Source: Welwitschia mirabilis
Taxonomy: Eukaryota
DNA: 33,128 nucleotides
NCBI GenBank assembly: GCA_051453625.1
Contig: JBOZIK010000001.1
Span: forward strand, 30,572,154 to 30,605,281
Direction: 5' to 3'
Made by a program: the position numbers and the translations under genes. The notes below the pieces were generated by a model. It was given only the letters and a program-made list of their open reading frames with translations. It was not told the DNA's origin and ran no database searches. This document shows positions 1 through 25,400 of this stretch, one piece after another (position 1 is the first letter of the stretch; each line of letters begins with the position of its first letter).

Positions 1-1
1 A

Positions 2-1280
2 GAGATACTTGAGATTATTCATATTTGTTATGATGGTATTTGTGGAGGACATTTTAGTGGACATAAAACTACCATGAAAATCCTCTATTCTAGTTTTTAT
101 TAGCCTTCTCTTTTTCATGACTCATTTGATTTTATTAAAAGATGTGATTCTTGTTAGTGTTTTGGTAGCCTTGTTCGTTAATAGGAAATGCCCCTTAGAC
201 TTATTCTTGAGTGTGAGCCTTTTGATTATTGGGGTATTGATTTTATAGGGCCTATTCCCTTACCTTATTTTAATAAAAAATACATTTTAGTAGCTATTAN
301 NNNNNNNNNNNNNNNNNNNNNNNNNNNNNNNNNNNNNNNNNNNNNNNNNNNNNNNNNNNNNNNNNNNNNNNNNNNNNNNNNNNNNNNNNNNNNNNNNNNT
401 TCCTTAGATCTATTCTTGAGTGTGTGCCTTTTGATTATTGAAGTATTAATTTCATAGGCCCTATTCATTCAACTTATTTTAATAAAAATTACATTTTAGT
501 GGCTATTGATTACATGACTAAATGGGTTAAAACCATATCTATTTCTTTGAATGATACTCAAACTATCTATCATGTTCTTAGAATTTATATTTTTCAAATA
601 TTTGGTTTTCCTAGAGTCATAATTAGTGATAAGATTACTCATTTCATTAATGCTCTTTTTAAGAAACTTCTTATGTTCATTGGTATAGAACATAGAGTAG
701 CTTGTGCTTATCATCCTCAGAATAATGGATAGGCTGAAAATGTCAATAGAGAAATAAAAGAAATTCTTCAAAAACTTATCTCTGTTAGTAAAAAGTCTTA
801 TGCTTTTAAGCTTAATGATGTACTTTAGGCTTACCGTACTACTTGGCGTACTTCTTCTAGTTTTTAATCTTACAGACTTATTTATGATAAAGTTTGTATT
901 TTACTGGTTAATGTATGTTACAATTCTTATCATGCATCTCAGCAGCTTTATCTTGTGAATTTTAATGAAAATATTAAGTACAAATTAGCCCAATTAGATC
1001 ATCTTGATGAGAAAAGAACTAGTACCATATATTGTCAATTAATTCATAAAGCCCCAACAAAGTTCAAACATGATAAAATAATTTTTCATAAAAAGTTTCA
1101 ACCTGGTCAACTTGTCTTATTATATAATTCTAGAGTTCACCTTTTGAATAACAAGTTGACCTCTAAATGATTAGGTTCTTATCTTGTAAAGAAAGTGCAT
1201 TTTAAGGCTTAGTTGAAATTTTAGATTTGGAAACTAAAGAGATTTAGAAGATTAATGGGTAATGGTTGAAATTATATGAG
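2..1280 (+). pseudogene. Gypsy (Athila-like) integrase pseudogene: HHCC zinc finger, DDE core, GPY/F region
   Basis: Frame 2 reads HICYDGICGGHFSGHKT...FY*PSLF...CDSC*...[21 protein letters not shown]; then AIDYMTKWV, FGFPRVIISD, HRVACAYHPQNNG*AE, FQPGQLVLLYNSR..KLTSK*LGSY, ING*WLKLY. Many stops at Trp/Gln codons. Confidence 0.93.
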
Positions 1281-1750
1281 GCATCTTTAGATGCAGCCAT
1301 GAACATGATAGAAGCACTTGTTTTGGAGGTTGCCCTCAGTGAGGAGAACTTCCTTCCTTCATTGTCTAAGTTATTTCTTAGTCTACTCATTTAGTTAAAT
1401 ATTATGATATTACCTGATCATATTTTAAACTTAACTTGTGTATTACTTTGTGAAGTATTATGATTAGTTTTATACTTGGGCATTCACAGGTGGTAACATT
1501 AGATTCATCTAATCTTAATACATTTCCATGTCTATGGAATTTATTTAAAGTAAGATGCCTTACTTTCTTGTGTTTTTTCAATGGTGTTTAAATATTAGGT
1601 TGCTTGTGAGTATTCTTTTCTGTCTTTTATCTCACTTATTTACCTTTGTATTTCTTGAGTATATAATCATATGAGAATTTTGTATATAAATAAAGTATGA
1701 AATAAAGGCCATGATGTTTTCTATCTTTGCTATCTCAAAAACATGGTCAC

Positions 1751-1971
1751 CATGATGTCCTACCGTAAGTATACTAGGGCAAATGTTTTCGAGAGGAGCC
1801 TTTGATAGTGTAATATGATAGCTATAGGAACTCCACTGGGAAGTTAGTTAGCCATGCTTCATAGGTTCTTACTCCTCTAACAGTGGTTGCACTTCTCTCA
1901 TTATGATAAAAGAAATAAAAAATTTGAGGTTAGGGATCAGTGATATTCCTGGTGTTACCAGAGGCATTACT
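1751..1971 (+). ncRNA. Conserved, putatively structured RNA module downstream of pol (copy 1)
   Basis: 1751-1856 aligns without gaps to revcomp 22032-22137; 1861-1905 aligns to revcomp 21939-21983 (39/45 identical); hairpin 1939-1971 corresponds to 21868-21902. Flanking sequences do not align. Structure is inferred. Confidence 0.55.
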
Positions 1972-3852
1972 TATTTCCTATACTCTTAGTATTTTCACTT
2001 AATCATTTCACTNNNNNNNNNNNNNNNNNNNNNNNNNNNNNNNNNNNNNNNNNNNNNNNNNNNNNNNNNNNNNNNNNNNNNNNNNNNNNNNNNNNNNNNN
2101 NNNNNNNNNNNNNNNNNNNNNNNNNNNNNNNNNNNNNNNNNNNNNNNNNNNNNNNNNNNNNNNNNNNNNNNNNNNNNNNNNNNNNNNNNNNNNNNNNNNN
2201 NNNNNNNNNNNNNNNNNNNNNNNNNNNNNNNNNNNNNNNNNNNNNNNNNNNNNNNNNNNNNNNNNNNNNNNNNNNNNNNNNNNNNNNNNNNNNNNNNNNN
2301 NNNNNNNNNNNNNNNNNNNNNNNNNNNNNNNNNNNNNNNNNNNNNNNNNNNNNNNNNNNNNNNNNNNNNNNNNNNNNNNNNNNNNNNNNNNNNNNNNNNN
2401 NNNNNNNNNNNNNNNNNNNNNNNNNNNNNNNNNNNNNNNNNNNNNNNNNNNNNNNNNNNNNNNNNNNNNNNNNNNNNNNNNNNNNNNNNNNNNNNNNNNN
2501 NNNNNNNNNNNNCTTGGGAGTTTGCTAGGTTAGTACTTAGGATAGGTAAAAAATCTTTTCCTTATTCTTTGTGTCCATTTTCACTCTGGTTGTTTTGGGT
2601 TTTGAATTCTACTTTTCAAAGGCATTTTCACATTTTCTTATTTCTTGTCAAGACCTTAATCATTTAGTAGTTTTCTTACTATTCAATCGTGATAAAACGT
2701 TTTTCTCAACATGAATTTTCCAAAAAAAAAAAACAACCATTATTTAAAAAGAACATCTTTTCCACAATCTTCATGATTTCCCCTATAGCTTATTGAGTTC
2801 TAAGTCTATCATGCTTTCATTTTTTTATTCAGGCACATTCATTTAGTATTTATTGTAGTTTTTTAACCTAGATAGTCTATTTTCTTTAGCCATAGTTTTT
2901 TTTCTTTTGTATGTTTCTATCCCTTTTACTCAGATTTTTTTTGCTTTTCTCATTTTTTCTTTATGNNNNNNNNNNNNNNNNNNNNNNNNNNNNNNNNNNN
3001 NNNNNNNNNNNNNNNNNNNNNNNNNNNNNNNNNNNNNNNNNNNNNNNNNNNNNNNNNNNNNNNNNNNNNNNNNNNNNNNNNNNNNNNNNNNNNNNNNNNN
3101 NNNNNNNNNNNNNNNNNNNNNNNNNNNNNNNNNNNNNNNNNNNNNNNNNNNNNNNNNNNNNNNNNNNNNNNNNNNNNNNNNNNNNNNNNNNNNNNNNNNN
3201 NNNNNNNNNNNNNNNNNNNCATTCTTTTGAGAGACAATGACCCCTCTGGCTAGTATCAACATTTTAGAACTTGTCCTGCCTAATTTCGTTGCCAGATTCA
3301 CAAGATTTCTTCAAATTTGTAAAAATAAGATATGTTTCTCTCTCCTCCTAATTTTTCATTTTTTCTCATATTTTTAGCCTTTCGGCATGTAGTTTTAATG
3401 TATATCGATCAGTTTATCTTCTTCTTCATTTTGGAACTTACAGATCTGAATTTCACTATATATTTTTTGAGTTATAATTACTTTTATGTATTATGAGGTA
3501 TTTTTAGGGTTTTACTTTTCACACTTATTTTCTTGCAAATCACAAGTAAAATCATAGTGGTCCTTTAGGTAAAACTGATTAGGGTGATGTGCTCTACAAC
3601 TTTACTGAATTAAATTTTTCATTTGAGTACTTTAATTTTTTACTTCTTATGGGGCCCACTACATACATAGTGTTCAGAATTTTTTGCATTTTTCTCCATT
3701 TCTTTTCTCATGATTAGGCAATTTAGGATGTATTGCATTTTTGTTTTTAGGGAAGTAGGATATATTTTTAGTATTTTTAAAATTTTAATCAATTTTAGGG
3801 GTCATTATTGCGCATCCATGTGACATTTTTGACTTGCTTGTCTATTTTCACA

Positions 3853-5147
3853 TGATGAGTTTAGTATTTGTAGTTGAGTAGGCCACGTACGCATAGAGCT
3901 AGCTAGGTAGAGGCTTTAGTTGAGTCTGTAGGATAGGTGGTAGGCCCTTTGGTTGAGCTCAAGATATATCATGTGGAGCCTACACACCCACCATCTTTGA
4001 GCATACAGACAATTAACATTCATGTCAAAAGACATTTTGGTGATTTCATGAGCTACATAGAGCCAAAGGTTGATCAAAGATTAACAGAGTTACAGCTTAG
4101 ATGGATTATAGATGTACATGGTGCATATTATGTTTTGAGATAAGAGAGTTCTATGACAACATGCATATAGAGAGGCGACCAGACACATATGGTCAGCTAC
4201 AGGACATGAGTGTTGCATACATTCAAGACCATGAGATTTCTATCTTTTTATCTCACATTGCAATCATCATAGATCTCAGAGGTCTTGGAAGATTACCTAT
4301 TCATTTAGCTAGTGGGATAAAGAAGCATCAAGCTTATGGTGCCATTTTAGATGTTTCAGCTGATATGATCACTGATCGATGAGGGGTAAATGTTACCTAG
4401 CTAACCCCCGCATACAGAGTTTTGCACAGAGGACTGATTCATAACATCAGTCCATCATACCATAACAGTTATACTATGGTCATGCATTTATAGATTCTAA
4501 CAACCTTTTATCAGGGGAAGTAGATGAATTTATTAACCTTTATATGGAAGAGACTTAGGTCTATAATTGAGATATGATATTTATAGATACTTAATTATTC
4601 ATGCCTCTTCTCAATCTTGTTTAAACAATTTGGGATACCAAAGCCCATAGGATAGTGACATATCTCACACATTTAGAGTTCTACTCACTATTTATAGGAT
4701 ATGGGTATACAAATACTAGGAGAAGCAAAGAGATCTCAAGTACAGAGACTTGCATTTGGAGCTTTATTAGAGCAAATCCAGGCCCCTTTGGCTGAGACTA
4801 CCAAGACCCTCAGAGGATTTGTTGATTAGAGGTTGAAGACGTTCAAGTAGGGAGTTGAGTAGTAGATCCTATCCTTTGAGTAGAGAGTTGAGCAGCAGAT
4901 CCTATCTATTGAGAGGAGAGTATAACACACAGAGGATCAGATGGTGGACATGCACCAGCACATTGTCTCCATTCAACAGAGTATAACTATAGATATTCCA
5001 GAGTCAGTACATGTCCAGGGTAATGAGAAAGTCAGGTCTATTATAGCATCTCTTAATGACTATCTCCCCACAGATCCTGATCATCCTCCTTCTTCTCCCC
5101 CTGCTCTTGAGCCAGTTACTAAACCAGGGTTTATCATGCATAGATAA
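3853..5147 (+). pseudogene. Env-like / extra ORF of Athila element (resembles the 'putative plant transposon protein' Transposase_32-type family), degenerate
   Basis: Pieced translation: YYVL/EIREFYDNM...VAYIQDHEISI...LTPAYRVLHRGLIHNISP...GK*MNLLTFIWKRL, followed by a repetitive coiled-coil-like stretch and a Pro-rich tail (PDHPPSSPP). Lies between integrase and 3' LTR. Start is approximate. Confidence 0.65.
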
Positions 5148-5659
5148 TAGGAATGATTTTACATTATATTTTGTATCTCCCCTTCTACACTTCTTGTACT
5201 AAAAACTCTTATTATTATATAGACATATCATTTCATTTTAGCATGATGTACTATTTCTATCTCATTTTTTACATTGATTATCTATTGATTTTTATGATGA
5301 GAATTGCATTTTGAGGGCAAATATTTATAATTAACTATTTATCATAGTGGAGGGTTGTTTATTATGATTAATTAATTAACTAATAAAATCAATTTCTATC
5401 ACAAGTTCTAGTTTTGAAAACCCTTTACAGAGTTGTCATCCTCTATATCATCCAGACAACTAGCCAGACAATCAAACTCTAATGCTTCATAGGTGTTTTG
5501 TTTAGTGTTCTTAATTTTTCAAAAATTTAGGTTATCTCTAAAATATTCTTCAAATCATTTTGAGAGAATTTGTTCAAGTATTCTACTTATTTTCATCATC
5601 TAATAAGTTGGCTCGCAAATGAGGTTTATTGCATGGTTTTATTAGGGACTAACAAGGCT

Positions 5660-5670
5660 AAGTGGGGGAC
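5660..5670 (+). promoter_or_regulatory. Polypurine tract (PPT) of gypsy element 1
   Basis: 'aagtgggggac' lies 2 nt before 'tgttatgccaccaac', where homology with the other LTR copies begins. Confidence 0.75.
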
Positions 5671-5672
5671 TA

Positions 5673-6109
5673 TGTTATGCCACCAACTTACATATATTTG
5701 ATAGGATATTCTGAGTTATTTTATAGGTAATTGTAGATAAATGCTTGTATTTCATGATAATGGAGAAGCAAGATGAAAAGGATGGAAATATACAATTTCC
5801 TAGATAAATTATAAGCGTTCTGAGAAAATACAAATAATTGGTATTTTTTATGATAATTTTCTGTAAACAACAATGCTAAAGCATTGATGGAAGATTCATT
5901 GAAAGGCCATCATCCATGTCATCATCTAAATAACAGGATAGATGACAATGCCATTACATGATGATAGGTCTAATGGACAGTCAGACTAGTAGCAGATGAG
6001 GATTTAACTATGAGTTGGTATCGTCTCTTGCATCATCTGGATGACTAGCTAGATGACACTGATTGTAACGCTTGCACTGAATATTCACCTATACTTTCAC
6101 TACCTATTC
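5673..6109 (+). repeat. LTR A: 5' part of the 3' LTR of gypsy element 1, truncated
   Basis: Starts with TG after the PPT; near-colinear inverted copy at ~6722-7161; homologous to 7560-7998 (-) and 27346-27730 (+). Confidence 0.85.
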
Positions 6110-7161
6110 TGATTAAAATCCTATTAACTACAAATAATATGTACAAACACAACACATTAATATAGATGGGAGTGATTCGAATGTCGTAATTTGTTAAAGG
6201 CGAAAGTATGAAAATAAGAGAATTGCTTTCAAGATGAAAAATACAGTAACCCTAGCCTACAAAAATAACTTGCAATGCATGAAAAGAAAATAAAACACAC
6301 TTATTCAAAGCTAATCTAGGACAAGAAATAATAATTCATCTAAACTAACCAAGTACAACCTTGACAAAGGTTACCCTCATAATCTATATCACAAGAGAAG
6401 ATGTCACTAAATCTCAAGCAACATAAACTATGAAGGAGAAGATCTTTATACAAAAAGAAATGTTTATATTAAAATTTAAACCACATCTGTATTACAAAAT
6501 AGCCGCACCTCAATAGAGGAAATTCCGCCCAACACCAAGAAAACATCTCTCTGAAATTACAAGATGGTTCTTTAGTCCCTTGATCTCCTGTCACAAGTAA
6601 GTTGGGTGTAATTAAAGATGATTAGGAGTCGAGGGGAGACCTCTATTTATTAATCTAAAACATGAAATGAAATTAATAGAAAGGCATAGGAAAAACCCTA
6701 ATCACCTTATAGAGAGAAATTAGAATAGGTGGTGAAATTTTAGTTGAATATTCAGTGCAGGCATTACAATCAGTGTCGTCCAGCTGGTTGTCCTGATGAT
6801 GTAAGAGACGATGCTAACTCATTGTTAAATCCTTATCTATTGCTAGTCTAACTATCCATTAGACCTATTATCATGCAATGTCATTATCATCCATCCTGTC
6901 ATCTGGAGGGTGACATGGACAATGACCTTTCAATGGATCTTCCATCAATGCTTGAGCCTTGTTGTTTGCAGAAAATTATCATAAAAAGTATCGATTATTT
7001 GTATTTACTCAAAATGCTTGTAATTTATCTATGGAAATTACATATTTCCATCCTTTTCATCTCGCTTCTTCATTATCATGAAATCCAAGCATTTATCTAC
7101 TAATTACCTATAAAACAAATCAGAATATCCTACCAAATATATGTAAGTTGATGGTGTAATA
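6110..7161 (-). repeat. LTR C: full-length (~1050 bp) solo LTR of the same family, reverse orientation, no TSD
   Basis: Minus strand begins 'tattacaccatcaacttacatatatttg' (cf. LTR A 'tgttatgccaccaacttacatatatttg'), contains 'taataaatagagg' TATA-like box, ends '...ggattttaatCA' at 6110. Length matches the 27346-28408 LTR. Flanks tattc/caacc differ. Confidence 0.8.
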
Positions 7162-7998
7162 CAACCCAAGAAAAGAAAATAACAATGCACCTATCCTAAA
7201 CTAACCAAGCATAACTTTGACAAAGGCTATCTGCATAACTTATATCACTAAGGAAACTATCACCAAATTAGTAGCAACATAAGCTATGAGAGTGAGAAAT
7301 AATCATACATTGAAATGAAAAAAATAAGTATTTTGTATTAAGTTTTGAACCACATCCATATTACAAAGTAACTATACCTCAATGGAGGAAATGTCATCCA
7401 ATTCCAAGGAGAACATCTCTCTACAATTACAAGGATGGATCTTCAACCCTTTAATCTCTTATCATAAGAATTATAGGTGCAAATGAAGATAAGTAGGAGT
7501 CAAGGATGAGATCACTATTTATTGACATAGTAAAATCATAATAGCCACTCTAAGAAAAACTAACATACATGTGGAAAATATTAAGTAATTGTTTAGGGTA
7601 TACATTACAACAGTGTTGTCTAGTTGATCGTCTAGATGATATAGGAGATGATGCCATTTTATAAAAGATCCAAATCAGCCATCAGAAAGATTATAGTTAA
7701 CATTTCATTTGCATGAACTACTTGGTTATCCATCTAGGTTGTCTAAACAATAAGATGAATGATGGCCTTTTACAAATATTTAATCAGTGCATTAGCCTTA
7801 ATGTTTTGTAGGAATTATCTCAAAAATGTAAAGTATTTAGAGTTGCTCAAAATATTATAAATCATCATGGGGATTTCATGTTTTCATTCTTTTCATCTCA
7901 TCTCTTCATTATCATAGAAATCAAGCATTTTCCTATCTATTTACTTGTAAAACCACTCAAAATACCCTATTAAATATGCATAAGTTTGCCACAAAACA
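7162..7998 (-). repeat. LTR B: more diverged, 3'-truncated LTR of the same family, reverse orientation
   Basis: Minus strand starts 'TGttttgtggcaaacttatgcatatttaatagg'; 7165-7990 is a direct repeat of ~6285-7160 (e.g. 'taaactaaccaag...ttgacaaagg', 'gcaacataa.ctatga', 'aacatctctct..aattacaag'). Confidence 0.8.
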
Positions 7999-10880
7999 AG
8001 TTGTAAATGAATTTCATCCTATAATCCAAAATATTTATCTAGTTAATAGGTTTCTTAGCAATGCAAAGATATGGGATAAAGGCGACACTATTTCCTTCAC
8101 TAAAGATAAATGCATTATAAGAACCTCAACAATCAACAACATAGTTTTGATTAGTGGTAGATTAAAATGCATGTATGTCATTGGATGTGAAGATAAGTCA
8201 AGGGAAGAATACTACATTATTCATATTGATGAAATAAACCTTTAGCATAGAAGAATAGTACATATGAACTTAAAGGATCTTAGCGACATCTCTACAAAAA
8301 AAAAAAAAAAAAATGATAGACATGCCTAAACTAAACATGATTGAAGTTAAAGTCTGTGATTCCTATATAAAAGAAAAATTCATTTGCACAAGTTTCAAGA
8401 GTAATAAAGATATTAATTCAACAAAACCCTTAGACCTTATTCATATGGACTTTATAGGTCCAATCCATACTCGAAGCATAGGAGGAAAAAGGTATTTCTT
8501 AGTTGTGGTTAATGATTTTTGAAGATTTACTTGGGTAGCTTTTCTAACTAGAAAGGATGAAACTTATGACATGTTTTTAAAAAGAGTCAAAAAAGTTTAA
8601 AATAAAAAGAAGTATAATATTAATTCTATACAATTTAATATAGGAGGATAATTTAACAATTAGAAGCTTGGGAATTCTTGTGACTTCCATGGAAAGATCA
8701 TTAATTCTCAGCTACTAGAACTCCTTAATAAAATGGAGTTGCTGAATATAAAAATCATGTTTTAATTGAAATGGCTAGGACTATGTTAAATGAACAATCA
8801 TTACCTACAATTAATATTGCTTGCTAGATATACAATAGAGTTTTTCTAGGACCTAGTACTAAAGAATCACTTATGAGCTCTGGAAAAGCAAGAAACGTAT
8901 AGTGAATTAATTTAAAGTATTTGGAAGTAAGTGTTTTATTCTCAAAGATAAATATCGCAGAAGAAAGTTTAATTTCAAGATAGATGAAGGAATTTTTCTA
9001 GGATACTCTTCAACTAGTAAAACATACAAAGGTTTTAACAAAACCTCTAATAGAGTAGAAGAATCAGTCCATGTTAAAGTTAAATAGAATGCTCAAGAAA
9101 CTTTTAAACAACATAAAAGAGATGATGAAGAAGAAGTTGTCATAAAAATCACTGAAGAAGAAGCTACATTAGATAACTAACTATTCTCTTCCAGTAGTGA
9201 AGAGAAACTTACAAATAGATATTTATCTCTTCCTCTTATAATAAGAAGAGATTATCCAAAAAATAATGTTTTTAGTAATTCAATTCAAGGTACAACCACA
9301 AGAAGTGAAAAGCACATCAATCATGATTTTCTATGTTTTGTTTCTAAGTTAAAACTCAAGACCTTTCAAGAGGGAAAACATAATAAGGCCTGAATGATGG
9401 ACATACAAAAAGAATTAGATTAATTTGAAAGGAATAAACTTTAGGACCTAGTTTTAACCCCATTAAACAAAAATGTTATTAGAATAAAATTGATTTTCAA
9501 AAATAAAAGAAATGAACATCACCAAATAGAGTAAAACAAAGCTAGATCAGTAGCCCAATGATCTTACTAATAGGAAGTAATTAATTATGATGAAACATTT
9601 TCTCTTGTTGCAAGAATCAAAGCAATCCAGATGTTACTAGCCTTTGCTTCTTTTCCTAAGATTAAGTTATATCAAATGGATGTTAAGAGTGCCTTCTTGA
9701 ATGGATGTATTAATGAATAAGTCTTTGTTGCTTAACCTCCCAGTTTTATAGATCCAAAACTTCCAAATAGTGTATACAAATTAAATAAGGCTCTCTATGG
9801 ATTCAAACAAGTTCTAAGAGCATCGTTCAATAGATTAAATCTATTTCTTATGTCAAAATAATTTTCTAAAGGAATGCAAAGCTAACTCTTTTGATTAAAT
9901 GAGATAAGAATGATATTTTAATAGTACAAATTTATGTGTATGATATTGTCTACAATTGCAATAAAATTACTTCTAGTTGACAAGTTCTTTAAAATGATGT
10001 AATAAGGAATTTGAAATAAGTCTAGTGGGATAACTAAACTTCTTTTTGTATTTATAAATTAAACAAATAGATCTAGCATATTTATAAGACAGTTCAAGTA
10101 TGCTACAGATATGTTAAAAAAATATGATATGATGGATTCTAAAGACATTAAAACTCTCTCTTCCACAAACTTAAAATTATTAAAAGATGATGGATGAAAA
10201 AGAGTGGATCAAAACCTGTATAGAGGTGTGATTGAAATTTCTTTATACATGACAATAAGTAGGCCTAATATAGCTCATAGTGTAGGAGTTTGTGCTAGAT
10301 ATGAATCAGACCCCAAAGAATCCCATTTGATGCATGTTAAAATAATCCTTTGATATATCAAATACACACAAAATCATGGGTTATTTTATCCTTACAATTC
10401 CTCTTTTGATTTATTAAGATACTATGATGCAGATTAGGCTGGGTGTTTAGATAATAGAGAAAGTACCAGTGAAGCATGTTTCTATCTGGGAAATTGCCTA
10501 GTATCTTGGCTAAGTAAGAAATAAAATACAACCTTCCTATTAACCACTGAAGCTGAGTATATTACAGCAGATCATGTTTTACATAATTACTTTGGATGAA
10601 AAAAATGTTAATAGATTTTGGAGTTAAATGTGAAACTATGGAATGTTTTATAATAATACAAGTACCATTAGCATAAGAAAAAATCCAATTTAACCCTCTT
10701 GTATCAAACACATAGATATAAGACATCACTTCATATGAGATTAGGTTCAAAATAATATTGTTAATATTCATTATATATTCACAAATAATCATATTGTAGA
10801 TATTATAATGAAGGCTCTAGATGAACAATGATTCAAGGACTTGAGACAAAATTTAGGAATTAGAATAAATCCTTATGAGG
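7999..10880 (+). pseudogene. Ty1/copia pol pseudogene (protease C-terminus, GAG-pre-integrase, integrase, RT, RNase H)
   Basis: L*HRRIVHMN (~8240); KPLDLIHMDFIGP..SIGGKRYFLVVVNDF*RFTWV; RTP**NGVAE; QMDVKSAFLNG (~9673); LNKALYGFKQ; VQIYVYDIV (YVDD); DAD*AGCLDNRESTS..LVSWLSKK*..LTTEAEY; ends DIIMKALDEQ*FKDLRQNLGI. Confidence 0.95.
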
Positions 10881-13905: not shown

Positions 13906-14371
13906 CATATGATATAATGTTAGATTAGTAAATGGATTTATGAATGTTGTTAAATTAATAGTTTATTAGCTAAGAAAGAATTCACTTAATCTTCCAACCT
14001 ATGTCATGGTTAACTTTGATACCTACACTAGAGTTACTGTTGAGGACTCAAGTCAAGAAATAGTTTCCCTCATCTCATTCTCTAGAGATCAAGCAAAACA
14101 ACTATTTTTCAAACTTTCATGGGCATTAACAATTCATAAATCTCAAGGAATTACACTTATTAAAGCATGTATAAAAATTAGTTCCAAGGCAATATCAGGA
14201 TTGGCTTTTGTGACTTTTTCTCGAGTGAAGTTCCTAGAATCATTAAAGATATTACACCCATTCTCTAAACAAAGATGCAAAAAATTATCTAAGAGTTATA
14301 ACTTAGAAAGGAGGATTAAGAGAGAGAAACATTTACCAATCCTAGAAGTCTATAATATGTTATCTTTGTAA
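13906..14371 (+). pseudogene. Pif1-family SF1B helicase C-terminal fragment (probably transposon-borne, Helitron-group)
   Basis: RLVNG..VVKLIVY..LPTYVMVNFDTY..QLFFKLSWALTIHKSQGITL..SGLAFVTFSRVKFLESL: Pif1 motifs V and VI. Uninterrupted by introns. The 5' part is cut off by the SIRE LTR. Confidence 0.85.
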
Positions 14372-14861: not shown

Positions 14862-14921
<60 letters not shown>

Positions 14922-15369
14922 TTATAATTTGGCTGAGATATATTAATCTCTACCACATTTTAGAGAATGGTAAAAGAATTAACCTAAATATGTTTTACCT
15001 CAACATTGGTGTTGACTATTATCACAATTAAAGTTGATTTTTTCTAAAGTTAATGTTGACTTTTATCATTTGAGCAATGCTGATCATTTACCAAAATTCA
15101 TTGTCTCATTCTCGACCAAATATTTCCTATTATTAACCAAAAATTCCTTAAACATTTTTGATTAAGAATAAGGTATTGACTTTTAATAAATGGTTAACAT
15201 TAATCAAATGGCAAAAGTTAATGTTGACTTTAGGGAATTTTAACTTTGATTATGGTTATAGTCAACACCAATGTCTAAGTAAAATGTGTTTAGGTTAATG
15301 CTTGTACCCTCATCCAAAAGGCAGTAGAGATTGATATATCTTAGCCAAATTATAGATGTATATAAAATA
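14862..15369. mobile_element. Foldback / long-TIR MITE-like element (near-complete palindrome, arms ~210 bp, spacer ~30 bp)
   Basis: 'tacatttataatttggctgagatatattaatctctac...acattggtgttgactat' (14917-15020) is mirrored by 'atagtcaacaccaatgt...gtagagattgatatatcttagccaaattatagatgta' (15258-15360); symmetry continues inward to ~15125/15155. The left boundary is hidden by an N gap. Confidence 0.8.
14867..14918. repeat. (TA)26 microsatellite inside the left arm of the foldback element
   Basis: Directly visible. The corresponding right arm has only 'tatata'. Confidence 0.95.
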
Positions 15370-15569
15370 TATATCTAAGATAGTTTTGAATAAGATGTAA
15401 TATATTTACTTTCATTAATCATAGAATTTTTAAGGCCTAAAATAACTTTTTCTTTCAAAACCTAGAATACCCGCTCATCCTCATTTGTGTAAATAACAAG
15501 TTGAAGAATTCCTAAAATGTGGAATAAAGAAATAAATACTAGGTATGTTTTTCTATAAAATAATGTTAT

Positions 15570-18500
15570 TTTATTATGGGAGATGACATTCATTATGAAG
15601 GTTGCATACTTATGTGACATTTATTATTAATTTAAAGTTATGATAATTGATAGTTATAAGTCTTTTAAAATTTTTTTAATCATAATGTGATGTATTTTCT
15701 TGAATTTTATAAGTGTCAAATGTTGAATGGCCATAAGTGGATACATGGAGATTTTATAGAAGGACATAATGTAGAAAGAAATATGCAACTTTTACAACAT
15801 TTGACATGTTTACTAACCAATTTTTTACCATAAAAATCAAAAATGCACTTTTCTATACACTCATAGAAACCATGCAAAATTTTAATCTGATTTGAACATC
15901 ATTTTTTGCCAACTTACTCTCTTTTAGTATGCATAAAATTGCCACAAGATGTGAGTACGCATTGTAAAAAAATGTTAAGTAACATGTTACTCTTTAATTA
16001 ATCTATGTTTTGAGTTACTTGATGTCTTATTATTATGTCTTTATAAGGTTAAAATTATACTATTATTTAAGGGTTTGAACCTATATATATTTGAAATTTC
16101 ACCATAAGTTTATGCCCATTATTAACCTTTATGCTTGCTTCATGAAAATGAGCTCTTATATGGCATAGAGAGCATGTTTGATAAAGTTGATAATATCATT
16201 TTATATTAGGTGATGCTAATGTAAAGTATCTACTTACGATAATGATTTTTCATTTATGCTACTATTAAGTTATGTGCTTGCATCGATGAGGACGGACTTG
16301 CACATAGCACATAAAGCATGACTAGTGAACATGATGATACCAACTGATATTTTTATTATGAAGGTTTATGATGTTAATTATTATTTTAATTCAATGAAAT
16401 TCTCTCTCTTATGCATCATTTCTATAGCTCCAAGATGGATATGTTGAGATGTATATTTTATATATGTTTAATCCCATAATTATGCTTATTTTATCATTTT
16501 ATTATTATTATTTATAACATTTTTAAATGTGATCTTATTATGGTCTGAATTTTAAAATATAATTTTATGATATTTTACAGAACAATTTCAATATATTAAA
16601 ATCTACCAAAGCAAAATCTATAGAGTCTAGTTTGGATTGTACCATAAAGCTTTATGATCATTGTAGTTTTTCTTTTATGCTATTTTATAATGATAAAATA
16701 TTATCATATACCTTAAAGAAAAAGCTATGGAATCCGTCTAGAATTAGATCATAAATATTTGTAATATAACTTATATTGAAGCTAAAACTAAAATTTTATT
16801 ACATCTAGGTATATCTTGTAAGTCTATTAGACCAGTTAAGTAATAGAAAGTACATTATATCAATATTTATAGACTACATTAAACATACCCAATTCTCATG
16901 AAGCCTAAAGAAATCCTTAAAATAATGTCCTACTACTTCTAATGCTAACATAAATAACTCATATATATTTGTTCTTATGATATACCATTTGCATCTAAAA
17001 AATTCAGTGCCATAACACTCTAACAAAATATGATGGTCATCCTCTTTTACTTATAATAGGCAAACTTCACATGCTTAATCCTTTGTTTGAACATCATCCC
17101 ATATTCCAATTTCAAATTTAAAATGATGAGATCTCATCCTTACTTTGCTAATCAGATTTATGATTCATAATGATATTGATGTAAATAGATTACTCCACTT
17201 TCTTCTCAAGTTTACTTCCTCAAATAGTTTTACCATAGAACTGAAGTTCCTTTTTATTTTTGTCTATCTTCCACCATCACTTAAGAACTTCTATTTTCAT
17301 CATCTTGCAAATTGTTTTAGGCTTTATAGTTATATTGTGATCCTAAATGTCCCATTCCTATAGCCACAACTTTCCTTTAGCATACCATTCCTTTTCTTGA
17401 GTGGTTTCTAATACCTCATTTAAAAACTTAGTTTTGTTCTCAACTCTAACCTTCTAGTAAAATATTAGAAATTAGCATATTTCCTTGGCTTAAAAAGGTA
17501 ACATATTAACCTTTAGTAATAACATTCATATGATACTTAAGCCTTAACCTTAAGTTCATCTACCAAAAATTGTTTCTAAAATTCTTCTATTTTCTTTCAC
17601 AAATCTTTGGCAATACTTAGACTCCATACCATGCATTTATATAAAATAACTAATTGCATAATCACATGAAATGATTGATTTTGTACTTTCCATGATGAAA
17701 TATTTTACTTCTTATATTTCCTATTTATAGCATAAAGAGGCTTCCACCCATAGGCAACTCATTGTGACACATATTGATTTTATTTATAATTTTAAAAATA
17801 TTTCAATCCTAGGTATTTGTATGAATCAACAATTTTAAGTCATTTATTTTATCCAAAAACTATAGTTTCTTTTATTTATTCCACAAATAAGCTTGTAATT
17901 TATAGGAATTATATGAATCATAATCTTAGGAATAAATTTCTTAAGATCTTTATATGATCTTAAAATATTGAAGGTATGGAAGTATCAATTATAACCTCCT
18001 TTATTTCCTCTAGATTATTAAATAAGTTTACTGATGGATGCTTATATAGTGAAATAATTGTAGAAAATGTCATAAAATAATATAAAATAGTATTGAAAAA
18101 TGCAGAAACTATGCCACTGTTAACTTAAAATAAGCTTACATCATTAAATAAAAATAATCAAAGGCTTACTAAATAACTAATTGAGATTCAACCATTTAGT
18201 TCAAAATGAATCACCATGATATGCTCATGATGAAGTTACTTGAACTAGTTAGGTTGGTTTATTACTACTAAGTTACTATAAACATATGTTATAATATGGG
18301 AAAATTAAGAAAATAGTAAAACATGATAGAAATTAGATGAGATGCTAGACAATACTTATTTTTAAGTAGTGTTAATTATTCTATTTATGTGCAGCTGCAA
18401 AAATAGGAGCAAGTAGAAATAATGTTACTTTTTCAAGTAATAGAACATGCAAAAATGATACTCAAAATATGATTTCTAGCTTTATATTGAAATACCAATT

Positions 18501-18620
18501 GTTATATAAATATGCACTAAGGATTATATTTTTATTTGTAGGTAATAAGAGTATGGGAAATGTTCCTATCCTTTGCAAGATAGTTGAAGCTCCCTTTCTT
18601 GATCTTCTTGCTTAGTCTAT
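15570..18620 (+). pseudogene. Possible decayed multi-exon gene (unidentified product)
   Basis: Repeated T-rich tract + AG acceptors followed by less T-rich blocks ending in GT (e.g. ttttag|15929..|gtgagt; ttttacag|16581; tttatag|17731..|gtattt; tttatag|17907..gaag|gtatgg; ctctag|18013..ag|gttggt; gtgcag|18395; ttgtag|18542). No family recognised. Confidence 0.3.
16782..17633 (-). mobile_element. 5'-truncated non-LTR retrotransposon (LINE ORF2 3' end, RTEX-like)
   Basis: Minus-strand translation WYGV*V..KIEEF*KQFLVDELKVKA*VSYE/MLLLKVNMLP..EWYAKGKLWL*EW..LISKVRMRSHHFKFEIGIWDD..ACEVCLL*VKEDDHHILLEC (CCHC knuckle at ~17007-17074), then AATAAA (16795-16800) and a (TTTTAG)2 tail. Confidence 0.75.
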
Positions 18621-19699
18621 ACTTAGAACTTCTTGACAAAAAGATCTTCACCTTTGATGGTGATCTCTCTCTTACACCCCTATCTATTTTTTTTTATTTC
18701 CTTTCTTTGATCCTTAGGAATTAGTTTATGGTTGAGGTTGTTACTACCTTTTTTCCACCTTAGCCTTCTCTTATCTTTATGCTAAATTATATTTTATATT
18801 TATAATTCAATAATAAATATATATATATACTAACCTATTAACATAATTACTAATTAATCCATTAATTAGTAAGTACATTTATAAAGAAAAACATCTATTG
18901 TTATCTAAAATGCATAATTATAAAAACAAAAACATTCCATTAATAAGTAAGATTTACATTAAATTTATCATCATCAGTTCCCTCAAGCTCAATGTTTTAT
19001 TATTCCCTTAACAAATGAATATATACAAAAGATCTTGAATATAAAATATCACTCAAGCATGATAAAATAAAATTTAGGAGTGAAAGTAAAATTTACTAAT
19101 CCATTTCCTACTTAAAATAAGCAAAAACTAGTACTTATATTGAATTCAATTCGCATGTATGAGGAGTCAATGAGAAATTTTTACTAAAAATAAAATAGAT
19201 GGAACTAAAGTTATTTCATACTCTGTTAATGCTAGAAAATAAAATGACTTGTTGGTAAGGTAAAAAGTAGAAAAATTTGCTGACTTAAAACTAATGTTGT
19301 AGATGCTAATATGGTTGAGATAACGTGGAACTAATATTGCAATGTGGATCATTAAGAATGAGGAGGAGTTATTGAAAATGAGTTTAAGTGAAATGATAGA
19401 GGCATAGAAAGTTATATTTAAGTGGTGGTTAATCTATTCTATATCAAGTTTGATGAGGGTTATTGATAACTCTCGAGTTCTTGATAAGAGCCATCAAATC
19501 CTTTGTGGAGTTGGTAAAAAGAGTTTGAAGGTAATCTTTAAAAACTTTTGAGTTCTCAATGGGTTCCTTCAAATTCTAACCATTATTATTATGAAAGTAA
19601 GGAATAATGAAAAAGTGAAGTTGTGTGACAGAGTTGTAGCAGAAAGTTAAGGGGGTCATCACCAAGAAGACCTTCCCTTTTAGAAGCATGTTTAAGAAG

Positions 19700-20210
19700 G
19701 AAAAGTTGACTTAAAATCTGGTTTAAAGATTTGGCTTTGGACTTGTATTAATTAATTTTTTAAACTTATATGTCAATGGTTTAGCATAAAATCCAACTCA
19801 AAGTTTTGACTTCAAGTTAGTGTCAGTCAACCAAATGATCTTTCTTTTTGCATATAAGATGAAGAAGTAACTGGTTAACTCAAAATCCAACTCGTATTTT
19901 TGACTTCAAGCTAGCATGTTTTAATTATATGATATTACTTCATTATAGGTTTTTAAAGTACAAGAAGATAAATGAGTTAGCATGAGATCTAACTCAAAGT
20001 TTCAACTTCGAGTTGGTGTTAACCAAAAAATTTGAAATTCTTATCACAGTGGTTTGATTTGAAATCTGACTCAAAGTTTTAGCTTTAGATTGGTATTGAT
20101 TAACCAAGTGATTTTTATTTTCATGTAGGTCTAGTTTGGATGTTTATCAAGTTAGCTCAAAATTTGACTTAAAGTTTCAACTTTGAGTCAGTGTTGGTTA
20201 ACTAGATGAA
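19700..20210. repeat. Array of six ~55-bp palindrome-containing units with irregular spacing, arranged as a duplicated 3-mer
   Basis: Core 'aaatc(c/t)(a/g)actcaaagttt(t/c)(g/a)actt(c/t)(a/g)agt' at ~19714, 19789, 19883, 19985, 20062, 20160; spacings 75, 94, 102, 77, 98. Confidence 0.85.
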
Positions 20211-20353
20211 CTTGATTTCAAGGCCTTTTTATGCTAATATTTTATTAGAGGGAAAACATCAGTAACTTTTATTTCGTATCCTCCCTTAAAATAAAATAAA
20301 TAAAAAGAAAATTCTTTTCTATGCTATCAAACATAGTCTAAAAAGTCTTCTTT

Positions 20354-21043
20354 TGATCAAAAGTATTTGCAGGGTTTCTAGTAATTACTTAGCAATACAA
20401 TTTATGATGACAAAGTCTAATGGGTTCTTAAAATGGCATGTAGCTTAAGAAAAATTAAAATCATCATAATTCAATATGAAATTCTAACTTTAGATTAAAC
20501 CTTGATTAGCTTGAAATTCCTTAGTTCCTATCTTACTCTAACATTAATGCTAACACTTGGAATACTTTAGCTATTAGCAAAATAGATATGCATCTTTTAC
20601 ACAATCCTTTACTTTAATATTGAACATGTGTGCACTAGGTAACTTAACATGAATTACACTTGTCCAACATGATAGTAAGACCTATTCTATAAATCTTATT
20701 CTTTTCATGCTAATCATCCATCATTCTTGACCTGAGCTTTATAATTTCTTTACTTAATCATCTTCCAATCCTTCTCATCTTTTCTTAGTTAATCCTTATG
20801 ATTGGCACTTCCCTTACTCTCCCATTACTACCTCTATTTTAAAAAGGTAAAATGTTGCCTATTCAATTTAGGTTCCACATAGATAAACATGTGCATTAAT
20901 AGTGTAAAATCCTTGTCACATCAAATCTTTATCAGGTTATAAAAATGGTACAACAATTCTTATACTATTAATTACTGAGGTCTTAAATACCTTAGATTCC
21001 TTCATAACTGAGGCTATAAAGGATAGTTTTGAAATTAGTATCA
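20354..21043 (-). repeat. 3' LTR of element 2 (~690 bp)
   Basis: Minus strand starts TGATAC directly after the PPT (21044-21057), has 'ttttaaaatagagg' TATA-like box, and ends '...tacttttgatCA' at 20354. There is no second copy in the window to confirm the distal end. Confidence 0.6.
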
Positions 21044-21057
21044 TTCCCCCAAGTTTT
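21044..21057 (-). promoter_or_regulatory. PPT of gypsy element 2
   Basis: Minus strand 'aaaacttgggggaa|tgat', the Athila-type AAGCTTGGGGGA motif. Confidence 0.75.
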
Positions 21058-21867
21058 GGCCCTATGATCCATCACCTAGTGGGTGAGTATCTAAGGGTGA
21101 GAACTAAAGAACTTCATTAGTAATTCAATCATGGAAACTTGACTTACAATGTTTATTTGGGTAAATTATCTTGGTAAGTGCAAGTGCTAAAGAAAAGGAT
21201 TGATTAACTTCAAGGAATAAACCCTGTCTTTAGTCCTATTGCATTGAGTTTTGATAAGAAGAATATAGATAAGACAATATGGGATGCTAAGCCTTATTAA
21301 AACTTTTGAAAAACCCACCCAAAAGAGATTAATATGCTATTTAAATCTCTAGGTGAGATGCATCTACTACCCTTGGGTGAGAATTTTGTAAGATTGTCTT
21401 ATAAGACTAGGTGTTCTCACAGAAAGAACAAGTTTTTTGGTTTTTTTAAAAATTGATTTACTTTAGTTGATTGATTTATTTGCTTAGTAACTTAAGAAAT
21501 GATTTTATTGTTATTTCTATAACTAGATGTAATAAACTAGTTGGCTTAATAAAGTTTTTATTTTTATTTTAAATAAATTTTTTTAATAACTATTCTTATT
21601 TTATTATGGGTATATGAATTTCATTAAAGGGAATTCAAACTAAGAAATTTATTAAATTGTTAAGATAATGTGAAATAATTTTAAAACTTTGAATCTTTTG
21701 CATAGATCAAATAGAATTTAATGGTTGTACATGCTATTTAGTTTGAAAATCTTTAGATACACATTCCAGCATAGACTAGAATATTTTTCTTTTGGATTTT
21801 TTTTTTTTCTATTGATCTATCTTTCTTTATTTTTTATAAGTTGTGATAGATTTATAGTTTTAGCAAC

Positions 21868-22137
21868 TAGTTATATCTCAGATGATTCTTAGGGCATAAC
21901 TATTCCTCAACCTTTTATTTTTTACAAATTAATTTAACCATAATGAGAAGAGTGCAACCACTATTAAAGGTGTAAGAACCCATAAGATATAAAATTTTCT
22001 TTTTTTATTTTTAAATTTAAATTATCTAGATTGTGGCTAACTAACCCCTTAGTTAAGTTCTCACAACTAACATATTACATTGCCAAAGGCCCCTCTTGGG
22101 AATATTTTCCTTAGTGCACTTGTGGTAGAACATTGTG
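21868..22137 (-). ncRNA. Conserved, putatively structured RNA module downstream of pol (copy 2)
   Basis: Homologue of 1751-1971, in the same sense orientation and position relative to its own element; carries a 48-nt AT-rich segment (21984-22031) where copy 1 has 4 nt. Confidence 0.55.
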
Positions 22138-22499
22138 ATGTTCTNNNNNNNNNNNNNNNNNNNNNNNNNNNNNNNNNNNNNNNNNNNNNNNNNNNNNNNN
22201 NNNNNNNNNNNNNNNNNNNNNNNNNNNNNNNNNNNNNNNNNNNNNNNTATATATATATATATATATAAGGTATTCTATCCTGTGATGAAATGTGTTTCCT
22301 TAATATTCTTAATAACGATAATGGACACTCCCCTATTAAAGACTTACCAAGTCAGCTCCTTACCTTATAATCATTACACTTACCTTAAACAATCTAGTAA
22401 ATTGGTAGTCTGAATAAACTTTAAATAAATGACACATTCTTTATTATCTAATCTTAAAATTTATTTTATAGGTAGAGTGAAAGTATTCTTTCCACACTA

Positions 22500-25400
22500 T
22501 CAGGTATCCTAAATAAGTATAGCACTAATTTATGATCATAGTACATTCTTATTCTTTGCTTGTTAACTTGATAGATTACATTTTTATTAGGATCATATAT
22601 TTTTATGGCTCCATTTTCTAGAATTTTTATTATGGCATAGGATCCCAGTCAATTTTATTCATATGTTTATTTTGAATGGATTTTCTTAAGGTCATAGATT
22701 AATACAGAATATCCTATATTAAAATCTGTTTTTCCTAATTCTATTATCATGATATATTTTAGTTTTTTGTTATATAATTATTTTTATGTAAAAGATCTTT
22801 TTTTCTATTTTCATCTAAAATATTCATGTTTTCTATTCATTCTTTCTAAGCTATATCTAAGTTACTTTTTAATTCTTTAGCCAATTTAAATATTTTTATC
22901 CTAAATTCAATTGAACAAATAGCCCTTTTTCCATAGACTAAATCATATGGAGTGAATCTTGTGGTATATTTCTAAGTTATTTTATAAGCCCATAGATCTT
23001 CATTTAACTTATCATTCTAATCTATTTTTTTGTTTTACTATCTATGACATTGATTAATATTCTATTTAATACTCTATCAGTTAATTTAGCTTGGCTATTA
23101 GATAAGGGATGATAGGTAGTAGAAAGTATATCGTGGATTTTGAATTTAATTAAAAGTTTCTTAAGGAATTCACTAGTGAAATGAGTTTCTTTATCGAATA
23201 TGAGACTTCAAGGGGCTCTAAACTAATAGATAATATTTTTAAGGAAAAAGATAACTACACTTGGGGAAGAATAATCGTACACTACCTCAACCTCAGCCCA
23301 TTTAGTGAAGTAATCAACATAGACCAAAGTATATCATTTTTTAAAATACGAGGGATTGATAAGTCTAATAAAATCTATTCCCAAAAAATAAAAATATTCA
23401 ATTATCTAATTTCATTATTTTGGAATTTCTAATCTTTGGCTAAATGAACTTTCTTTTTTATGTTTATCACAACCTTGAATACAAGTATTTTAATCTTTCA
23501 ATATGATGAACTAGTAGTATCCCATATGAAGAATTTCATTCCTATTCTCACTGCATCATAATTGCCTTTTCTTTGTCCTTTATGAGCTTCCTTTAAGATC
23601 TTATCTTATAGGTTTTCCTCTATACATATTCTAATAACATAATCTTTGCATTTTCTAAATAACATCTTATCATGCCAAATATAATCTCTAGATTCTCTTC
23701 TAATCTTTTTCCTTCATAATAACTTATAAAAGATGGTAATATTTTTCTCACAAAAAAGTTGGCTATATTAGCATACCATGGATTTATTTTTACCTAGAAA
23801 AGATGTTCATCTAAAAACTCATTCCTTATGTTTATTTGTTCTTCATCTAAAAATTATAACCTTGAGAGGTAATTGACTATTTTATTTTTGTTCCTTTCTT
23901 ATTAATAATTTTTAAGTCAAACTCCTACATTAATAGTATCCATCTCATAATTCTCGAGTTTATTTCTTTCTTATTTATTAAAAATCTAATAGCACTATAA
24001 TCAGTATAAACTTCCACTTCATAAACTAAAAAATAATTCATGAATTTTTCTAATATCATTACCATTTCTAACAACTCTTTCTTTATTATTATGTAGTTTT
24101 GTTGAGCTAGTTTGAAGTTCGTACTAATCTAGGCAATGGCATAAGGTTTGTTGTCTTCAACTTCTTCCTTCCCCCCCCACCCCAAAATAGCTCCCATAGA
24201 ATGACTAAATATGTTGGTCATAATGTGAAATGATTTTTCTCAATTTGGTCTTTACAAAATAGGTGCTGATAAATGCTTATTCTTAAAGTTTGATAAGCAT
24301 TATAACATTTATTTGTCTAGCCATATTTCACATCCTTTTGTAAAAGGTTACTTAAACATTTTAGCAATTCTACTAAAGTTGGATATATATCTTTTATAAT
24401 ATCCAACATGTCCTAGAAAAGATCTTAATTCTTTTATTTTGGTTGGGGTGAAATACCTTTTATTAAATTTAATTTTTTATTCATTAGTTTTGATCCCTTT
24501 TTGAGATATATTATGTCCTAGCACTATGTCTTCTACAATCATAAGAAAAGTTTTTGACCAGTTAAGTCTAAGGAAGTTTTCTTCACATCTCTCTAAGATG
24601 TTTTCTAGTATATCAAGTGACTCCTCAAAATCATTTTCAAAAGTTAGAAAATCATCCATAAATACTTCAACCGATCTTCCTATCATATCTTAAAAAATGC
24701 TATTTACTAACCTTTGAAAAGTAGTAGGATAATTACATAGTCCAAAGATTAATAACTTATAGTTGTAAATACCCTAATGACAAGTGAAATTTATTTTGTA
24801 ATTTGTTATAACCACTATATCCATCTAGAAAATTTCAGTAATGATGTCTAGATACTCTTTCTAAAACTTGATCTATAAATAGAAGGGAAAAATAATCCTT
24901 GTAAGTTGTAGTATTTAACATTTGAAAGTCTATACATACTCTTCATTTATTTGCTTTCTTTAGCACAACTGTAATAGAACTAATCCATTTTGAATCCATA
25001 GAATAAATTAATCCCACATCTACAAGTTTGAAAATTTATTACTTAATTATTTCTTGCATGTGTGGGTTACATCTTCTTTCTAGTTGTCTACTTAATTTGA
25101 TAAGGTATCTAAATAAATTATACATTCATATATTTTTAGATATATTCTTTTAATATCTGTATGATCTTAAAAAAGGCTTTCTTCCTTTTAATCAACATCC
25201 TTTTAAGTCTTCTTTTCTGAGAATAAGTTAAATAACTGTTTATGATCAGAGATCTATTAGAAGCTACTTTAATATACTCTAGTGCTTTCTTAAGCAGAGG
25301 ATTTTCTATCTCTTGAGCTATCAAATCTTTCTCCTTCTATTTTTTCTCATGTTTTTTAATTTAATATTAGATTAACTTCCTATGTTATAATTACATTGGT

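Follow-up and report, generated by a model that had tools for sequence, protein, structure and literature searches.

Introduction

Long terminal repeat (LTR) retrotransposons of the mouse carry RNA elements that act in cis, which include the RNA transport element (RTE) of IAP and the MusD transport element (MTE) of MusD (PMC12786077). These elements and the constitutive transport element (CTE) of simian type D retroviruses are described as non-coding modules of the sense transcript that lie downstream of the coding region and occur in many genomic copies, and the MTE is reported to work by pseudoknot and kissing-loop contacts (PMC12786077, PMC1363727). The available part of PMC12786077 describes RNA export of plant LTR retrotransposons as lacking direct study. 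Here, we report on a conserved block of ~150 nt that lies downstream of pol in two divergent retrotransposons of Welwitschia mirabilis, both contained in a 33,128-nt stretch of contig JBOZIK010000001.1 (assembly GCA_051453625.1, positions 30,572,154 to 30,605,281 of the forward strand) that we refer to as the window. This block is probably a control signal of its host retrotransposon.

The block resembles the RTE, MTE, and CTE in its layout, and these modules are roughly 150-230 nt in size. It differs from them in its plant host and, to the extent visible in the window, in its position, which is just after pol and not beside the 3' LTR. Furthermore, it has no sequence or Rfam relation to them and no fold signal, and any role in export would be assigned by analogy. 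Non-coding nucleotide conservation across the families of a lineage has also been described for Sirevirus motifs (PMC2829016) and for seeds at ATHILA LTR-internal junctions (10.64898/2026.03.20.713144), in the parts of these sources that are available. Those motifs lie at or near LTR junctions, on the sides of the primer-binding site and the polypurine tract, or within LTRs, whereas the block is internal, lies ~0.45 kb after pol, and consists of two parts. Open reading frames (ORFs) and domains are known from the region after pol in elements of the OTA superclade, namely ATHILA ORF-1 (PF03078), Transposase_28 (PF04195), and env-like ORFs; in contrast, the block has no Pfam match, is interrupted by stops in every frame, and shows much stronger nucleotide conservation than integrase. 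The original prediction for this locus drew an analogy to the self-cleaving ribozymes of retroelements (hammerhead, HDV-like, twister), which are likewise short conserved RNAs within a transcript, but neither the gathering threshold nor a cutoff of E up to 10 gave the block an Rfam match to them, and it has no fold signal. We found no description of a conserved block at such a position after pol in the plant LTR retrotransposon literature that we examined, and an earlier description may nevertheless exist. A 2002 paper by Wright and Voytas may describe non-coding features after pol in Athila and Calypso.

Two divergent retrotransposons share a sharply bounded block

The original prediction had aligned two pairs of segments by hand, and an exact recount returned the same figures. 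Part A of copy 1, which is the core of the conserved island (1751-1856, + strand), matches part A of copy 2 (22032-22137, - strand) at 76/106 positions, with 27 transitions and 3 transversions. Part B of copy 1 (1861-1905, + strand) matches part B of copy 2 (21939-21983, - strand) at 39/45 positions. The two parts are separated by a variable spacer, which comprises 4 nt in copy 1 (1857-1860, + strand) and about 44-48 nt of A/T-rich sequence in copy 2, and which appears as a 44-column gap in three alignments. When the window was compared with itself by blastn, the two block matches (E 4.5e-11 and 1.9e-9) were the only DNA matches between the two host elements. A profile of the copy pair matched only the two copy sites in the window by nhmmer, and a purine/pyrimidine scan of 1-6000 against 17001-24000 found that only 1741-1919 against 22147-21925 passes 44/50.

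Both host elements are badly decayed. Element 1 enters the window from its left edge on the + strand, and its visible part consists of integrase only (185-1200) because the window edge cuts the element. Element 2 lies on the - strand and shows reverse transcriptase (RT), RNase H, and integrase (22538-25000). A HMMER search with the integrase ORF found 12,090 relatives at E up to 0.001, and a word-indexed protein search with the same ORF found nothing. We placed 150 of these relatives on the window by tblastn, which gave 835 high-scoring segment pairs (HSPs) and which, together with ORF pieces at 185-1170, delimits the integrase of element 1. Homology to pol stops at 1200 in a GPF-type motif in element 1 and at 22538, where the last HSP ends, in a FKVNG..K.YY-type end in element 2. 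Using frames in which stops were read as X (hereafter X-read frames), Pfam detected RVT_1 (7.5e-11), RT_RNaseH (2.3e-17), and rve (3.1e-6) in element 2. Its RT, RNase H, and integrase core share a single frame that is broken by stops only, and the C-terminal part of its integrase lies in a different frame. The integrases of elements 1 and 2 aligned at the protein level only, where three collinear tblastx segments showed 30-47% identity.

The domain order of element 2, RT - RNase H - integrase, is that by which Ty3/gypsy elements are recognized, and the C-terminal integrase motifs agree with those of relatives that are plant gypsy polyproteins. No chromodomain and no extra RNase H were hit in the X-read frames of element 2, in which decay could mask either. 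Athila elements are described as having no chromodomain, no extra RNase H (the mark of Tat), and a long non-coding region after pol (PMC6317226, available part). The ATHILA ORF-1 domain PF03078 had no match after pol in the ORFs and X-read frames tested, which decides nothing because only a minority of Athila elements, from 16% to about a quarter in the available text of two sources (10.64898/2026.03.20.713144, PMC6317226), carry it. By these sequence features, both hosts would fit the OTA superclade, with Athila compatible. Within the window, we found no LTR pair for either element and no LTR junctions, where ATHILA-type motifs of the primer-binding site and polypurine tract would lie. The env-like ORF that had been ascribed to one host was likewise not found among the window ORFs tested, and the ORFs after the block had no Pfam match. 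An N run at 2013-2512 masks what follows copy 1.

As had been proposed, both copies lie in sense orientation relative to their hosts, with the block starting ~0.4-0.55 kb after the end of pol (1200; 22538). For copy 1, the block and pol are on unbroken sequence (400-2012).

We compared the types of difference between the copies inside and outside the block. Its 151 aligned bases show 76% identity, with 32 transitions and 4 transversions, and 438 aligned bases of the integrase core show 54% identity, with 82 transitions and 120 transversions. The transversion rate is therefore 2.6% in the block and 27% in the integrase core, which makes the block about ten times better kept. In the 3' flank (1907-1980), 14/74 positions are transversions. 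Similarity ends sharply at 1906, on contiguous sequence in both copies, where a poorly conserved, A-rich spacer begins (1906-1938, + strand; 14/74 transversions in 1907-1980 against 4/156 block columns) that contains an AATAAA hexamer (1914-1919). Because transversions are rare inside and frequent in both the integrase and the 3' flank, the block is a sharply bounded island. The ratio of transitions to transversions, which is 32:4 in the block and 82:120 in integrase, suggests that most differences within the block arose by C>T/G>A decay after insertion. If so, the active parents of the two copies were nearly identical in the block, with integrases that were 30-47% identical in protein. Taken together, these results show that the island is real, sharply bounded, not recognizably coding, and kept across two divergent elements.

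The block recurs in the DNA of two organisms

A search of public sequencing runs found DNA of the block region in 13 DNA runs from 4 studies and two organisms; the listing that gave these runs contained no RNA runs. We aligned two DNA contig sets (X1 and X5) and two RNA read sets (X15 and X18) to window positions 400-2012 at a likeness of at least 80%. About 49,700 and 48,200 contigs aligned in the two DNA sets, which indicates that the host family is very abundant. In X1, summed depth over the bins 1750-1803, 1804-1857, and 1858-1911 was 78k, 200k, and 128k (ranks 7, 1, and 2 of 30), and in X5 it was 110k, 128k, and 156k (ranks 3, 2, and 1 of 30). Depth in X1 was 6k, 37k, and 6k in the upstream bins of 1534-1695, and in the bin that follows the block (1912-1965) it was 18k in X1 and 7k in X5.

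The copies also agree on where the unit begins and ends. About 90-110 contigs per run diverge before 1731, where they are A/T-rich, and behind 1905, where the loose ends (107 and 113) are A-rich. These breaks suggest that the unit shared across copies measures about 175 nt. The loose-end consensus of X1 behind 1837 runs on like copy 2. Within the block, the majority differences from copy 1 are mostly G/C where copy 1 has A/T (1772, 1826, 1896), which fits decay of copy 1. The island is thus kept in very many copies of two organisms. Exact and degenerate patterns of the block found 0 loci in viral, metagenome, and prokaryote genome contigs.

A separate stretch of the spacer that follows pol in element 1 (1426-1479) is also deep (89k in both DNA runs) and has no counterpart in element 2, which suggests that it is conserved within the family only.

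Among RNA reads, 95 (X15) and 24 (X18) aligned, with a peak on the block that amounts to about 14+15 and 10+15 reads per bin in X15. With so few reads, the RNA data give nothing firm on expression or processing. Specific over-expression of the block was rejected, as its ratio of RNA to DNA depth resembles that of the integrase region.

A predicted cis-acting module

Based on these findings, we tentatively favor a reading in which Athila/Tat-type (OTA) Ty3/gypsy elements carry the block as a non-coding module that acts in cis on the full-length transcript, a predicted function that we hold to be a serious possibility, short of likely. We propose this because the copies are nearly identical in transversions despite very different integrases, because the edges are sharp and the form is bipartite with a variable spacer, and because orientation is the same and the distance after pol similar in both elements. 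The top copy depth in two organisms, together with the lack of a coding signal, points the same way, as does the animal precedent for cis RNA elements in such a position (PMC12786077, available part).

In its details, the proposal is that the two-part block, which sits with its variable A/T-rich spacer in the untranslated stretch ~0.45 kb after pol, would act in cis on the full-length sense transcript, where a host or element protein that sets the fate of the RNA may recognize it. The step controlled could be nuclear export or stability of unspliced RNA, or the choice of RNA for packaging, and the block would be read mainly as sequence or local motifs and not as one stable autonomous fold. The RTE, MTE, and CTE play such a role in animals and are the closest functional analogues. 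We infer selection on a function in cis, action at the RNA level, and the step controlled. A bolder form of the proposal, which we regard as decidedly unlikely, is that the block would provide the first example of a cis-acting RNA module from the region after pol in plant Athila/Tat-type elements. By analogy, such a module would correspond in plants to the RTE, MTE, and CTE export and packaging elements, possibly with long-range pairings between parts A and B. It would be near-unchanged across families whose integrases, as seen in their decayed state, share 30-47% protein identity, and shared by dependent derivatives that have no pol.

Several observations weigh against the proposal of a cis-acting module. 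No fold carries a thermodynamic or covariation signal, and consequently an RNA-level role is deduced from position and orientation only. The ratio of RNA to DNA depth on the block is about the same as that on the integrase C-terminus, with both read directions equal, and no RNA starts, end clusters, or joints at the block were listed among the 95 and 24 reads. Depth within the family is not unique to the block, because the patches at 1048-1209 (94-128k in X1) and 1426-1479 are also deep. Copies of the block are known here from the window of this genome and from the DNA runs of two organisms. Exchange between families, a kind of recombination documented for Athila (PMC2410132, available part), could homogenize a patch without selection. 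Lastly, copy 2 abuts an N run (22145-22247) that marks a scaffold join directly 5' of it, between the block and the pol of element 2; the 5' flank of copy 2 is thus unreadable, and its tie to that pol is a scaffold join only.

A short non-coding module of this kind would be a concrete handle on RNA export, packaging choice, and protection from premature processing in plant LTR retrotransposons. It could be built into reporters, serve to capture the proteins that bind it, and mark the lineage in annotation.

Processing, exchange, and repeat explanations

The alternative that survives best, which we nonetheless consider unlikely, is that the block is a signal for RNA processing that governs either how a subgenomic RNA that serves a downstream ORF is spliced or premature polyadenylation, suppressed or permitted, in the A/T-rich spacer that follows pol. 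Plant elements of the envelope class make spliced subgenomic RNA, and an invariant GGTTAGT in the block (GTTAGT at 1843-1848) resembles a 5' splice site that U1 could bind. Both copies retain this motif, as does the consensus of X1 loose ends behind 1837. With regard to features of plant poly(A) signals, part A has UGUA, and AATAAA follows part B by 10-15 nt in copy 1, in copy 2, and in 2/3 of the loose-end consensus strings behind 1905/1909. A title cited in the Diaspora paper calls such elements 'transcribed and spliced' (PMC1142308, available part). However, no conserved AG acceptor is present at the 5' edge, where copy 1 reads CATGG, and copy 2 has TGG in place of the TAG|G that precedes part B of copy 1. 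No RNA joint or end cluster was seen at the block, although 95 and 24 reads have nil power to detect one. Furthermore, short signals would leave ~150 nt of near-identity unexplained. A mini-intron between parts A and B was considered and rejected, as the copies share no AG acceptor.

A patch that has no function and was copied recently between co-expressed families, by template switching or gene conversion, would be a rather improbable source of the near-identity. Swaps of pol and env parts among distant Athila families are documented (PMC2410132, available part), the block lies at the pol/post-pol border where swaps occur, and recent shared ancestry fits its low transversion count as well as selection does. 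Such an exchange would require two crossovers ~170 nt apart, and the similarity comes to an abrupt end at 1906, where both copies lie on contiguous sequence. In addition, the edges at which many contigs break, 1731 and 1905, are the same in two organisms, which argues for a recurrent bounded unit and not for a one-off tract. If the near-identity does come from exchange between families, the block would mark a recombination joint at the pol/post-pol border and would inform on the reshuffling of families.

It is very unlikely that the block is an independent short repeat, such as a high-copy element of ~175 nt resembling a short interspersed element (SINE) or a miniature inverted-repeat transposable element that by chance lies close to both pol remnants, or that it is an artifact of assembly in which scaffolding attached it to element 2. 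Many copies have A-rich flanks: 6 RNA reads carry poly(A) before 1751, and the loose ends behind 1905 are A-rich. Depth is highest on the block. Moreover, copy 2 borders directly on an N run and only 107 nt separate copy 1 from another, as happens where assemblies break on high-copy repeats. In contrast, copy 1 shows block and pol on uninterrupted sequence (400-2012), and both elements have the same orientation and a similar spacing from the pol end. The block also has no relation to tRNA or to known small RNAs, and no target-site duplication was evident by eye. ARAGORN found 0 tRNA genes in the window. A SINE derived from tRNA was also rejected, as the GGTTC and CAGTGG of part B, read by eye, stand in the wrong order for the consensus A and B boxes.

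Three other candidates were also rejected. An LTR start or a polypurine tract is not supported, as none of the 5' ends in the window carries a second copy and the edge lacks a purine tract with TG behind it. Under the rules that hold for tRNA primers, TGGTTGCACT read as a second primer-binding site would imply a tRNA that starts with U, and no tRNA match supports it. Between copy 2 and the 5' part of element 2, a search for pairing over long range gave only low-complexity 9-13-mers.

Coding potential

Several lines of evidence speak against a coding block. The original prediction named a substitution pattern with a period of three as the mark of a coding relic; we looked for it and found none, as the differences in part A fall 9/11/10 by codon position. 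All six frames of the block contain stops in at least one copy, and 5/6 contain a stop common to both copies. Pfam identified no family in the six X-read frames of 1300-2012. Consistent with this, 0/835 HSPs of the 150 integrase relatives fell in bins 1300-4499 or 19000-22499, and an antisense ORF of 71 aa had no Pfam match and no candidate protein homologue. A coding role of the block is therefore very improbable.

A small ORF or coding relic, which might be a basic peptide, an upstream ORF, or the first exon of a post-pol ORF, is accordingly a highly improbable explanation, and it does draw on some features of part A. An ATG at 1755 is aligned with an ATG in copy 2, with A at -3 in both. The frame that it opens spans ~30 codons and closes at a TAG (1845-1847) present in both copies. 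Copy 2 is open for 27 codons, and the extra stops of copy 1, TGA and TAG opposite TGG and CAA in copy 2, fit decay. The differences show no periodicity, however, and there is no Pfam family. The read consensus of X1 has an in-frame TAG at the same place, and part B, with its identity at the nucleotide level, lies beyond the stop. Protein homologues, which were searched for with the antisense 71-aa ORF only, were not found.

Folding and covariation

The original prediction had read the block as an autonomous, pseudoknot-rich RNA, such as a self-cleaving ribozyme, an internal ribosome entry site, or a dimerization/packaging fold, by reverting C>T/G>A decay. Rfam 15 covariance models, which cover hammerhead, twister, HDV-like, tRNA, snRNA, snoRNA, and known viral cis elements, gave 0 matches over the whole window at the gathering score. 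At E up to 10, either copy returned noise only and no ribozyme, which counts against this reading. The sub-threshold scores, set against their gathering scores, were 19.7/40 bits for snoZ112, 18.4/43 for drum, 16.5/72 for SSRC8_2, and 12.1/70 for RUF1.

Neither single-copy nor two-copy folds were better than shuffled controls. Against dinucleotide shuffles, the whole region gave z of -0.36 and +0.60 in the two copies, and for part A the values were -0.37 and +0.51 on the sense strand and +0.22 and -0.68 on the antisense strand, so that z stayed close to 0 for either copy and either strand. The single-copy test is weak because both copies have decayed. For the two-copy test, the block columns gave a consensus energy of -24.1 against a mean of -22.0 (sd 3.6) for 300 column shuffles (z -0.59), and 4 double changes against a column-shuffle mean of 3.6; all covariation figures rest on 2 sequences. 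RNAalifold returned a different fold, incompatible with the earlier one, that has 8 double changes. Changes from G-C to A-U that look compensatory come cheaply here, because 32/36 differences between the copies are transitions.

We also coded the earlier model itself, which comprises 39 pairs, arranged as 7 helices, and has two crossing sets. The three complementarities between parts A and B exist as described, 71/78 of the model's cells pair, and there are 3 double changes, but 43/500 shuffles do as well. The advantage of the model over slid partners is expected because the model was drawn from the same two sequences. By our estimate, complementary 6-8-mers between stretches of 106 nt and 45 nt are also expected by chance. 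The variable spacer between the conserved halves, which resembles a variable loop, is consistent with a structured RNA. In contrast, neither copy contains the proposed CCC-GAGA-GGG hairpin with a GNRA loop. The sequence is TTC-GAGA-GGA in copy 1, and the loop is AAGA both in copy 2 and in the read consensus, which indicates that the hairpin was a chimera of the two copies.

The small 3' hairpin of ~33 nt (1939-1971, + strand, in copy 1; 21869-21901, - strand, in copy 2, from a fold of 21865-21905) fared better, in that it folds in both copies and shows one double change from G-U to U-A in the outer stem. Copy 1 gave z -1.36, with 22/200 shuffles as good, and copy 2 gave z -2.09, with 6/200. 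However, the hairpin lies outside the conserved island, the register of its inner stem is shifted between the copies, and their sequence identity there is only about 52%. The claim of a structured RNA is thus unproven, not refuted, and an autonomous pseudoknot-rich fold is the most improbable of the explanations that we weighed.

Other features of the window

The window is AT-rich (GC 0.13-0.38 per kb), contains six N runs and many decayed remains of mobile elements, and has no ORF of at least 150 aa free of N. Within the integrase of element 1, a direct duplicate of 106 nt (193-298 and 402-507, 87%) flanks a 100-N run (300-399), which has the look of two similar copies joined during assembly and not of biology. 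Downstream of element 1, a tandem repeat with a 33-nt unit in 2.3 copies (4846-4921) lies in a GC-richer stretch (4001-5000, GC 0.375). It is followed by an inverted repeat of 437 nt (5680-6114 against 7154-6718, 87%) and a direct repeat of about 0.8 kb (6340-7149 against 7196-7986, 67%), and a short relative is found at 27959-28134.

Remains of other mobile elements were also observed. An ORF at 8274-8522 (+ strand) resembles by eye the start of a copia-type integrase, which suggests that another class of LTR element is nested in the window. A 133-aa ORF at 13970-14371 (+ strand) has a helicase-like stretch with a weak Pfam match to UvrD_C_2 (E 0.18) and a motif that we take to resemble PIF1/Helitron helicases. 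A long palindromic or self-complementary stretch of 487 nt (14863-15377, 74%) lies beside a (TA)n tract and an 84-N run. Toward the right end of the window, two tandem units of 1.39 kb (29206-30593 and 30696-32084) are 74% identical and separated by a 100-N run. The second unit contains gag-like ORFs (30811-31095), a protease-like ORF (32135-32395) comes after this unit, and this arrangement suggests one or more further gypsy-type elements on the + strand that are cut by the window end.

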